A stretch of DNA of 14,230 nt from the IMG/VR virus record IMGVR_UViG_2690316076_000003; one strand, given 5' to 3'. Origin of the DNA: a virus. Lineage: Duplodnaviria; Heunggongvirae; Uroviricota; Caudoviricetes. Each line of letters opens with the position of its first letter. Positions within the stretch are counted from its first letter, which is position 1. Shown one piece after another: positions 1-3,000 of this stretch. The position numbers were made by a program.

Positions 1-3000
1 AAAATATTTCTTAACTCCTTTCCCCAAACCATCATAATATGGATGAGCATCTACTTTACTATGCATAAAAGAAAGTCCCTCAAGTAGAGCAGGATGATTA
101 CTACGGTTAACAATTATTGCACTATTTTCAATATTTACACTATCATTACGACGATCCACATGCATTGAAATTCCATCAGGAGCATATATTGTACCAAGCT
201 TACCTGTAAGTATCATATCCATATCAAGATAGATACACCCCTCCCCGAATGAAATACCGTGATTCTTTGTATTATATGTGCACCTGAATATCTCTCCTGC
301 TTTTAATAAGGCTAAATTTCTGAAGAAATCAAACCATGCATGATTTCTTTTCTTTGCATACATAGAAATCAAAGAATCCTGCGCCTTTGAAATTTCCCTC
401 AACTCTTTCTCTAACAGATTCAACAAGTATTCATCTCTTTTGTCTTCAGTTCGTAACCTTTGTTCACATATAATATCATGATAAATATCTGATAGTTTTC
501 TGTCATACATACTGAAATCAACATCTTCCCGATAGATTATCATTACATTTTCAAAATCTCGTTCCAATTTTGAAAAAGCAGTCTTTTGGTTGACTGAAAA
601 ATCGCCATCAACAAAAATACCTATCATACGATCACTCTCTATCCTTGCCGCATTTGTGACATTATCTAAATAGGGATGCTGCTTAGTATTAACTATTGGA
701 ACCTCATCTTTCTTATATCGTTCAGGATTAGGTTCAAACCACTGAAAAAGAATAGGCGTTTTTTCATCAATGACCTTTAACTCATATTCCTTTCCGGCAA
801 AAGAAACCGTTTGACAGGGTGAACTCTGCACTATATTTGCTGAGTTATGGAAAGTTGTCCTTATCGGTGAAAGCATTCGTCGTCCTGTTTATCCATATTT
901 TCTTCACAACTAACTCTTTAATCTATTAATTATATTGGCATACTCAACCACAAAACCTCCAGCAGTTTTGCCACCTTTGCTTTCCTAACAAACATCACCA
1001 TGGCATGCCAACAAAAACCGGAGCCGGACTCCGGTTTTGTGAAGCTGTCGGGTTACTTCATCCCGCCAATATTTTCCCACGTCCCGTCAGCACGCAGAAT
1101 TTGCAGCGGTCTTACCACGCACTGTACCCACTGTTTTGACTATATCGCCTTCAATCTGGTTGGCTGACAGTTTCCCCTTAATCTGACAGTTCTCATTAAT
1201 TGTGACATTGTTGAGCGTCCCGGCGTTCGCATTCACACTGCCACTGATATCTGCATTTTTAGCGGTCAGCTTCCAAAGGGTCAGGTTCGGTGTTTATTGT
1301 GCGCTGCGGTGCGCGGTGAAATACCGGTACAAAAATGCCCCGCATCTGCGAGGCATTTTCCTGAAAGTCACTTGTTAAATTTCAGTGAAATTAAAATTAT
1401 TTTAAGCACTGCGTCCTGATGTATTCCTGCAGGTAGTTAACCTGCGCGGTTATCTTGTCGATTCCACCTCGGAGACGGTAATAATTGAGTTCAGCATCTG
1501 CTGTAAGTCCTGGGCTTTCTCCATCGCCCATGCTGCTGGCTCCGGTCGTTGACTTTGCACAGGTGGCGGAGACTTGCAGGCGCTTACGCCCAGCAGAAAC
1601 ATCAGCACGGAGACTTTCGATAGTCGCATTAGCATCAGCAAGCTCCTTTGTGTATCTGGCGTCGAGTTCTGCTACATCACGTTGACGCTTCTGCATGTCA
1701 GCGATGATGGATGTGGCTTTGTCGCGCTGGTCTTTGTAGGCGATGCCAGCCCTCTTTCAGTTTGTGTGTCAGCTTTTCCGCAAGGTCTGACGGCGACGCC
1801 GCCCTGACAACATCGTAATGTTTAATCGACATCGAATTTCTCCCGTGTAGAGGAACAGAGTTAAAAAGCCGGAAGCGGAATCAAATCACAGGATGACCAT
1901 CTGCCAGTGGCAGGTCATAAAAAAAAGGCTGCGCAATGCGCAGCCAGAACTCACAAGGAAAATGATAAAAGGAATAACACTAGTGATGTACGCATGGCGC
2001 CTCCCGCTAAGTTCTGCAATGATCAAACAGAACTCGCTACGTGCCCTTAAAACTCGATCATTTAGCCCCTCCAAGGAGGATTCACCATGCGGTTGATTTT
2101 TTAATAAACAGTAAACAAAAAAGTCAAGAATTATTCATTCTGTTCTTTCATCATCGGCCACAGCAATACCACAATGCCGCAGACCAGAGCGCCATCAGTC
2201 AGTACCAACATTATCCTGCTGGTGAAATCCATCATCACCATCACTAAAAGCAGGATCACAACAGCAAGCAGACACAGTTTATAAAACAATGTTCAGAAAA
2301 CGCATTCAGCATGCCTAAGGTTCTATTCCTACGAATAGCCAACTTGCAACTTAAAATATTATTTATGCAGCCAATTAAATTCTGGTCCTTACAATATCAA
2401 CCTGAAGATTCTTATCTTGTGCTGATTGATAAATGACAAACCTTTTACTACCTGCATTGAAAGAAGTAGACAAAACCAGACAATTATCATAACGAGCAAG
2501 AACATAATACCAACCATCATTATAATTAATCATTTCATATTCTTTCTTAAACTGTGGTTTGTAATATCCTGTCAGAAATGAAAAAAGCCAAAAATATGCC
2601 ACAAAAGCAATCATCACAATCTCAAAAAAATGTTTTTTTATAAATGGCTTATCATAGAAGCATGATACCGATAAAAATCGCCCATAAGATCTTATCGAAA
2701 TTGTAACCGCCAGCGCAATCGCTGCTGACAGTAGCAAAAGAGGTACCTGAATCTTCTGTCTCAATATAGAAAACTCAATAATTGCCGGCACAAACAATAA
2801 TTCCACAGCAAAATAAAGGCGAAATACATTTAGCTCTTGCATAGAATGTTTTCTTTTCACTGCGAAAAAGAATACAACACCAATACCCCAACCGATAAGA
2901 AATATAGCAATGACGATAACTGCAAAAAATAAACTTCTGGCAACATCATCAACACCTGCACCTACAATCCACCATGGGAAGCCGTAGTAAAAAGAAGTAC

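Follow-up and report, generated by a model that had tools for sequence, protein, structure and literature searches.

Base-resolution map of the collapsed late region in a lambda-like prophage of Escherichia coli

The late region of the lambda-like prophage held in IMG/VR record IMGVR_UViG_2690316076_000003 (14,230 nucleotides; this whole stretch is called the window below) is very probably a non-functional scar left by the stepwise decay of the prophage between torT and torS. On the minus strand, positions 1053-1832 consist of four gene fragments in a chain, namely the beginning of a NanS-p gene, a truncated Rz gene in which a complete Rz1 gene is embedded, an internal piece of the tail-tip (central tail fibre) gene J and the end of a tail-fibre gene. 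These fragments are joined by three clean junctions (J1 to J3, Table 1), each with 2 bp of microhomology, and a junction further upstream, J4, fuses gene O to the gene of the NinI phosphatase. Since all four junctions show microhomologies of 2-5 bp, they carry the signature of illegitimate recombination and not that of insertion sequence (IS)-mediated or site-specific events.

The window was recognised as a lambda-like prophage from its map of open reading frames (ORFs) and from a megablast of its whole length against 5,426 complete E. coli genomes; the host is a pathogenic E. coli that carries a lambda-like prophage remnant. Late genes and effector cargo lie on the minus strand, in the order Q, late region, effector cargo, and on the plus strand the order is cI, N, cIII, kil, gam, bet, exo, xis and int. 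The closest genome is that of E. coli Z1323HEC0011 (NZ_CP148385.1; locus L002), which is about 99.96% identical (6 mismatches over 14,230 bases) and aligns in two colinear blocks, with a 1739-bp segment that is absent from the window. In this strain, the prophage is located between torT and torS, the latter directly after int. All junctions were mapped by base-by-base extension of the colinear blocks against Z1323HEC0011 and three other relatives: a prophage with an intact late region from strain 2015C-4136CT1 (L001), its sibling in strain E2, which occupies the same torT-torS site (L003), and an essentially intact relative in strain EC12 (L017), which displays the ancestral gene order. The retained fragments are 100% nucleotide-identical to their counterparts in intact phages (L001, L003 and many prophages), which indicates that the deletion events are recent. 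At this level of identity, the fragment assignments can be taken as database-anchored homologies and not as chance resemblance, and the scar is evolutionarily very young.

Gene fragments and junctions of the late region

The remnant of Rz (the i-spanin) aligns to residues 31-145 of the intact 145-aa protein and matches PF03245 over positions 26-125 of 126 (E=3.6e-33). This agrees with a previous reading of the window from its sequence alone (the sequence-only reading), according to which the Rz-like frame lacks its N-terminal membrane anchor. The 30 deleted N-terminal residues include the transmembrane anchor and the start codon, and the internal ATG at 1696 has no Shine-Dalgarno sequence in front of it. 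The periplasmic coiled-coil domain is present, with conservation of the cysteines that align to C99 and C152 of lambda. The deletion responsible, J3, also takes out most of NanS-p, the holin gene and the endolysin gene rrrD; it amounts to 1739 bp by comparison with Z1323HEC0011 and to about 3.0 kb by comparison with intact EC12.

Rz1 (the o-spanin) is complete, as the same reading had stated: it matches PF06085 over positions 1-41 of 41 (E=2e-20), is preceded by an AAGGAG Shine-Dalgarno sequence and has a signal peptide with R and K in its n-region, a hydrophobic core and the lipobox VSAC. Furthermore, it is 100% identical to the copy of the 2015C-4136CT1 prophage. However, the stress that had been laid on Rz1 staying intact is unwarranted, since Rz1 is intact because J3 merely fell 110 nt upstream of its start. 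Its retention was probably neutral, and its survival carries no detectable signal of selection. Spanins act after holin and endolysin, and the inner-membrane-anchored Rz must pair with the outer-membrane Rz1. Since Rz has lost its start codon and its anchor, and since holin and endolysin are absent, gene content indicates that the remnant spanin cannot function in lysis. Rz1 and the chimeric 44-aa ORF located upstream retain good ribosome-binding sites, and both could be translated if Q-antiterminated transcripts that start in the intact Q/pR' region cross the hairpin at 1945-1927.

Database matches of the 99-aa Rz remnant product are mostly intact Rz genes clipped at contig ends and not true truncations. 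A 99-aa Rz is also called in an unrelated Logan contig of SRR28411400 (L007, 85-1015), after a lysozyme of 187 aa (RrrD has 165 aa); in that contig, R and Rz may be delimited differently or a frameshift may be present. Three ORFs of 58, 66 and 77 aa on the plus strand, antisense to Rz, were dropped, being located wholly within the Rz/Rz1 homology and without independent support.

Upstream of J3, the NanS-p stub is colinear with the SASA esterase gene of Z1323HEC0011, E2 and EC12 and matches the DUF1737 profile at positions 2-28 of 53 only (E=1.7e-9). It keeps its native ribosome-binding site, GGGAGA at 1838-1843, 5 nt before the ATG. The SASA domain, which spans residues 66-262 of the full 526-aa NanS-p of Z1323HEC0011, is entirely missing from the window, having been deleted by J3. 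Beyond the junction, the NanS-p frame continues out of frame into Rz DNA for 15 aa (residues 30-44), giving the chimeric ORF, whose exact product returned no record when looked up. The sequence-only reading had described this ORF as an unrelated frame with a strong Shine-Dalgarno sequence that precedes Rz out of frame. The ORF does overlap Rz out of frame and is unrelated to it, but it is not an orphan, its first part being the NanS-p N-terminus and its Shine-Dalgarno sequence that of the NanS-p gene. Likewise, the 62 nt that have no match in the 2015C-4136CT1 prophage were considered as foreign DNA and this was rejected, as they belong to the N-terminus of NanS-p, a gene that this phage lacks. 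In lambdoid phages, NanS-p genes with DUF1737 sit between Q (or the Shiga toxin genes, stx) and the holin gene S (PMC10462455), and the gene order of EC12 also places NanS-p between Q and the holin gene. The stub resembles the NanS-p proteins of Shiga toxin (Stx) phages and other lambdoid phages (PMC10462455) in its position and in the part of the N-terminal DUF1737 that survives, but it is reduced to 29 residues and devoid of the SASA domain.

On the other side of the Rz/Rz1 island, comparison with 2015C-4136CT1 and EC12 indicates that the interval missing at J2 holds Rha-type or hypothetical genes and terminase, portal, head and tail genes. This loss would therefore cover the packaging, head and tail genes up to about residue 999 of J, i.e. 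about 20 kb on the lambda map. The retained piece of J corresponds to residues 954-999 of the 1132 of lambda J (78% identity, E=1.6e-15 by tblastn), is also 100% identical to gpJ of many prophages and has neither a start nor a native stop. Relative to strain E2, J1 is a deletion of 2633 bp that took away lom and stf together with the last part of J and the bulk of the tail-fibre C gene. The tail-fibre C-terminus that remains at 1053-1136 matches PF06820 over positions 38-64 of 64 (E=7.9e-12). A tail-fibre-like C-terminal fragment, as claimed by the sequence-only reading, does exist there, but in another frame than the 49-aa ORF at 1087-1236. This ORF mostly reads the J piece and then runs out of frame into the tail-fibre stub, so that the fragment is mainly J and not a side tail fibre. 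The J and tail-fibre pieces are flagged as pseudogenes by the Prokaryotic Genome Annotation Pipeline (PGAP) in Z1323HEC0011 (RefSeq). Rfam and tRNA scans of positions 1000-2000 gave no match.

Table 1. Coordinates of late-region fragments, junctions and neighbouring features (positions in the window; dG, folding free energy; z, z-score)
Feature	Position	Strand	Description
nleB2, type III secretion system (T3SS) effector arginine glycosyltransferase	1-876	-	cut by the window start; colinear with nleB2 of L002 and L003
Terminator-like hairpin between tail-fibre stub and nleB2	1012-1040	-	dG -19.5 kcal/mol, z -3.1, then UUUUUGUU
Tail-fibre C-terminal domain gene, last 74 nt	1053-1126	-	about 24 codons and stop; 100% identical to L003 15053-15126
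J1	1125/1126		shared TA; tail-fibre C-terminal stub (74 nt) joined to 148 nt of gene J
Gene J, internal fragment of 148 nt	1125-1272	-	100% identical to L003 17758-17905
J2	1271/1272		shared TT; J piece joined to DNA 126 nt downstream of the Rz stop codon
Native DNA downstream of Rz	1273-1396	-	100% identical to L001; contains the hairpin at ~1330-1360
Terminator-like hairpin downstream of Rz	~1330-1360	-	dG -21.4 kcal/mol, z -4.0
Rz (i-spanin) remnant	1397-1745	-	residues 31-145 and stop; 100% identical to L001 6127-6475
Rz1 (o-spanin lipoprotein)	1450-1635	-	ATG at 1635 or 1629; complete, embedded in the +1 frame of Rz
J3	1744/1745		shared TG; Rz codon 31 onward joined to the first 29 NanS-p codons
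Chimeric 44-aa ORF	1698-1832	-	29 aa of NanS-p and 15 aa of out-of-frame Rz DNA
NanS-p, first 29 codons	1746-1832	-	N-terminus of a DUF1737 + SASA sialate O-acetylesterase gene
Strong intrinsic-terminator-like hairpin upstream of NanS-p stub	1927-1945	-	8-bp GC stem and T8; dG -17.1 kcal/mol, z -3.8
DUF3927 small membrane protein gene	2131-2289	-	intact; PF13064 E=3.4e-14; PHROG 1470; late-region moron block
STM1630-family membrane protein gene	2375-3133	-	intact; annotated by PGAP in L002 and L003; PHROG 1521
Late antiterminator gene Q	3371-3994	-	intact; 98% identical to lambda Q; PF03589 E=6e-58; tblastn residues 1-207
O(1-140)::NinI phosphatase(130-221) fusion	3991-4647	-	in frame; J4 at 4229-4233, shared GGATA

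Missing modules and course of the decay

Reference proteins were compared with the 14,230-base window by tblastn with a cut-off of E<=0.01. None of the lysis proteins S and R of lambda, nor the class II holin and RrrD of the 2015C-4136CT1 prophage, had a match in the window, and PGAP annotates neither holin nor endolysin in the DNA that the window shares with the about 99.96%-identical genome of Z1323HEC0011. Holin and endolysin are therefore absent, as had been proposed. There was likewise no match in the window to lambda nu1, A, W, B, C, D, E, FI, FII, Z, U and V, to lambda G, H, M, L, K, I, lom, stf, tfa, P, ren, ninB and ninG, or to Rha and NohD of the relative. The sequence-only reading also mentions a loss of O and P: P has no match and O is cut to residues 1-140 by J4. 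This junction corresponds to lambda 39104|43647 (about 4.5 kb), keeps iterons 1-3 of ori and cuts inside iteron 4, so that it deletes part of ori, the C-terminus of O, P, ren, ninB-H and the N-terminus of NinI. The fusion contains the C-terminal 92 residues of the Ser/Thr phosphatase, and RefSeq lists it merely as a "replication protein". Hence, replication, lysis, packaging, head and tail modules, all five, are missing or truncated within the window. By contrast, the ORFs of int, xis, exo, bet, gam, kil, cIII, N, cI (LexA family), cro, cII and Q are intact. The view of the element as a cryptic lambdoid prophage that keeps int/xis, the Red system, regulators and cargo and has lost the ability to make virions is thus supported.

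Structural or lysis genes just outside the window, which would refute this view, do not occur in its nearest relative. In Z1323HEC0011, the DNA beyond nleB2 contains nleC', a tail-fibre-assembly stub, nleH, cif, further stubs, an NleG-like (DUF1076) gene, espJ, IS1 and torT. The prophage is bounded by torS on one side and by IS1/torT on the other, and in this torT-torS interval PGAP annotates neither head, tail or packaging genes nor a holin or complete endolysin gene.

The Z1323HEC0011 prophage carries J1, J2 and J4, the O::NinI fusion, the cargo and the regulators of the window, and does not carry J3. Unlike the window, it has a complete Rz (145 aa), a C-terminal stub of RrrD and the 526-aa NanS-p. 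It may therefore represent the predecessor state. The starting point would be a phage with an intact EC12-type late region and with effectors beyond its tail fibres, integrated at torT-torS. Its late genes would have been arranged in the order Q, STM1630-family gene, DUF3927 gene, NanS-p, class II holin, RrrD and Rz/Rz1, followed by packaging, head and tail genes, J, lom, stf, the tail-fibre C gene and the T3SS effector cargo. J4, J2, J1 and a NanS-p/RrrD deletion would then have led to the Z1323HEC0011 state: J4 would have removed P, ren and ninB-H entirely together with the C-terminus of O, part of ori and the N-terminus of NinI, J2 everything from just past Rz to near the end of J, and J1 the last part of J and most of the tail-fibre genes beyond it. 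The last step, specific to the lineage of the window, would be J3, which removed 1739 bp from NanS-p codon 29 to Rz codon 30. This order of deletions is the one that the distribution of junctions suggests; J3 may instead be an independent single deletion from an intact NanS-p-S-R-Rz block. Between Q and nleB2, there are left two intact morons, the 44-aa NanS-p::Rz chimera, the anchorless and start-less Rz, the intact Rz1, the 148-nt J piece and the 74-nt tail-fibre stub.

The sibling prophage of strain E2 (L003 17369-20205) went through a different deletion, which spans from the C-terminal region of NanS-p to J and fuses the two. Lysis, packaging, head and tail genes are lost, Rz and Rz1 included; O, P, ren, the nin genes, part of J, lom and stf are kept. 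E2 lost the same modules through different junctions; sister lineages have thus eliminated structural and lysis modules independently of each other, and have retained effectors, Red, immunity and int/xis.

Alternative readings of the scar

The deletions bring nleB2 and the effectors within about 2.5 kb of pR'/Q. The decay could thus have rewired the element, so that SOS induction would drive Q-antiterminated read-through into the effectors, with the scar acting as a leader. The intactness of cI, cro, cII, N and Q and the common orientation of the remnants and nleB2 on the minus strand are in line with such rewiring. Q drives stx in Stx phages. Moreover, stx genes are reported to be co-transcribed with late phage genes upon induction (PMC8065619). 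Given the three terminator-like hairpins between Q and nleB2 (Table 1), transcripts from pR' would have to be antiterminated to reach the effector gene; nothing but these hairpins stands in between, and the Q-modified polymerase is expected to ignore them. However, the effectors already end the late operon in intact relatives, so that what changed is a distance and not a logic. Furthermore, Q and its promoter region are homologous to lambda up to lambda position 44584 only, and the qut/early transcribed region diverges past this position. We therefore regard rewiring as unlikely.

Another possibility is that Rz1 was kept by selection, the host having recruited the lipoprotein for a function in the envelope that does not require Rz, and deletions of it having been counter-selected. 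Lambda Bor and Lom act independently of lysis. The Shine-Dalgarno sequence, signal peptide and lipobox of Rz1 are all kept, its island (473 nt) survives between J2 and J3, and its expression is conceivable since Q and the promoter region are intact. Besides, the Rac prophage of K-12 keeps an intact rzoR inside a pseudogenised rzpR, a parallel in favour of the idea. Yet over 475 nt the island shows 100% identity with intact prophages, which leaves no time for a selection signal, and the predecessor state seen in Z1323HEC0011 has a whole Rz, so that Rz1 survival reflects a single breakpoint. In addition, the E2 sibling lost Rz and Rz1 altogether, terminator-like hairpins flank the island on both sides, and it shows no promoter match of its own. 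Selection on Rz1 is thus very improbable. Taken as one proposition, a scar that is not neutral, either because the orphan Rz1 is kept for a host-beneficial envelope role or because the effector block is under short-range, Q-dependent and SOS-inducible transcription, seems quite unlikely.

Several points nevertheless weigh against a scar produced by stepwise decay and devoid of function. None of the 5,426 complete E. coli genomes contains J3, and searches of genome-contig and metagenome-contig collections with exact 40-mers across it gave no match. The junction is backed by a single 2.4-kb Logan contig, which might come from the same isolate. The absence of structural genes beyond the window is deduced from one near-identical genome, that of Z1323HEC0011, and the loss of function (no virions, no lysis) from gene content. 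Finally, with Q, N/cI/cro/cII and int/xis intact, the element may still be induced, excised and transcribed, and would then not be wholly inert.

The rarity of J3 also bears on the idea that J3 (and perhaps J1 and J2) is an artefact of assembly from near-identical lambdoid prophages, the real locus being Z1323HEC0011-like or fuller; this idea is further favoured by the highly repetitive nature of lambdoid late regions in these genomes, where a single genome has as many as 36 places that match. Against it, the independently built Logan contig (L004 of SRR35976860, 2,415 bp) is colinear with window positions 1243-3657 with 2 mismatches and spans J2 and J3, junctions J1, J2 and J4 occur in a finished genome, and the breakpoint of J3 shares only 2 bp, whereas repeat-driven misassembly normally joins sequences at long repeats. 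Misassembly is therefore unlikely given the independent contig and the 2-bp junction and, all evidence considered, we give this idea hardly any credit. Since J3 occurs in no complete genome and J1 and J2 together in only one (Z1323HEC0011), the scar is restricted to one lineage and does not lend itself to a test of conservation or selection.

Retained genes and comparison with known prophages

Apart from the decayed modules, much of the element is well preserved; for instance, positions 8027-11710 are 98% identical to lambda. The cIII thermoregulator RNA (RF01804; 8615-8673, plus strand, 88.5 bits) is intact and is the sole Rfam match in the window, which fits the good preservation of the early-left operon. 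On the late side, nleB2 is cargo located downstream of the former tail-fibre genes. The DUF3927 and STM1630-family morons between Q and the NanS-p stub occupy the position used for stx in Stx phages, and the PHROG of the former is described as TciB-like (cell-division inhibition or colicin resistance).

Several other ORFs are uncharacterised. Directly downstream of N, an AT-rich ORF of 293 aa (7117-7998, plus strand; PHROG 12139) ends with 20 residues (..HAHQRNPNKKWS) similar to the C-terminus of Nun-like transcription termination factors (PHROG 5632, E=7e-5). A role in exclusion or termination is conceivable for its product, in which a Nun-type, RNA polymerase-arresting tail would be attached to a much larger body. 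Downstream of cI, at the position of rexAB in lambda, a small ORF (6041-6445, plus strand; PHROG 2651) with a signal-peptide-like N-terminus is a possible lysogenic-conversion or exclusion moron. An ORF of 200 aa encoding a multi-pass membrane protein (11909-12511, minus strand) lies in an AT-rich island between a TraR/DksA-family gene and xis, in opposite orientation to its neighbours; of its residues, only the C-terminal 88 are covered by PHROG 1416, and the ORF is frameshifted in the EC12 relative. PADLOC gave no match for five uncharacterised ORFs of the window, including those at 7117-7998 and 6041-6445.

The organisation of the scar can be compared with that of known lysis cassettes. As in the S-R-Rz-Rz1 cassette of lambda, Rz1 lies in the +1 frame of Rz, and the two periplasmic cysteines of Rz, the lipobox Cys and the proline-rich segment of Rz1 are found. 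Unlike lambda, the window has neither S nor R, and its Rz lacks residues 1-30; Rz and Rz1 share about 47-51% and 39-45% identity, respectively, with their lambda counterparts. The cassette of the ancestor belonged to the P21/DLP12 type, with a class II holin and RrrD, and not to the lambda S/R type. A parallel in pattern is Rac of K-12, a cryptic lambdoid prophage that also has no holin or endolysin, with rzpR as a pseudogene and an intact RzoR (a 61-aa lipoprotein). However, its rzpR/rzoR allele is different and closer to that of lambda (about 70% nucleotide identity to the window over 182 nt), and its breakpoint, unlike that of the window, spares much of the transmembrane segment of Rz, which stays in frame upstream. 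Moreover, Rac keeps stfR/tfaR and has recET in its early region, versus Red in the window.

The lambdoid prophages of E. coli O157 Sakai carry virulence cargo and multiple defects in replication, morphogenesis or packaging, and many of them can still be excised (Asadulghani et al. 2009, PMC2669165). All 11 keep the full set of lysis genes (PMC2669165), whereas the window is more eroded, since the lysis cassette and the whole morphogenesis block are gone. This is ordinary prophage decay in a textbook defective lambdoid prophage, and nothing in it falls outside known kinds. Apart from J3, the sequence of the window is already present in RefSeq, and the pattern of a pseudogenised Rz with an intact Rz1 is annotated in Rac.

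The finding matters little beyond annotation, for which it provides base-resolution breakpoints of the decay of an effector-carrying lambdoid prophage in one lineage. The 44-aa and 99-aa ORFs are best annotated as pseudogene fragments, and the strain-specific deletion of 1739 bp could act as a lineage marker. The parallel loss of the same modules in E2 and in Z1323HEC0011 and the window fits the established picture of prophage domestication.

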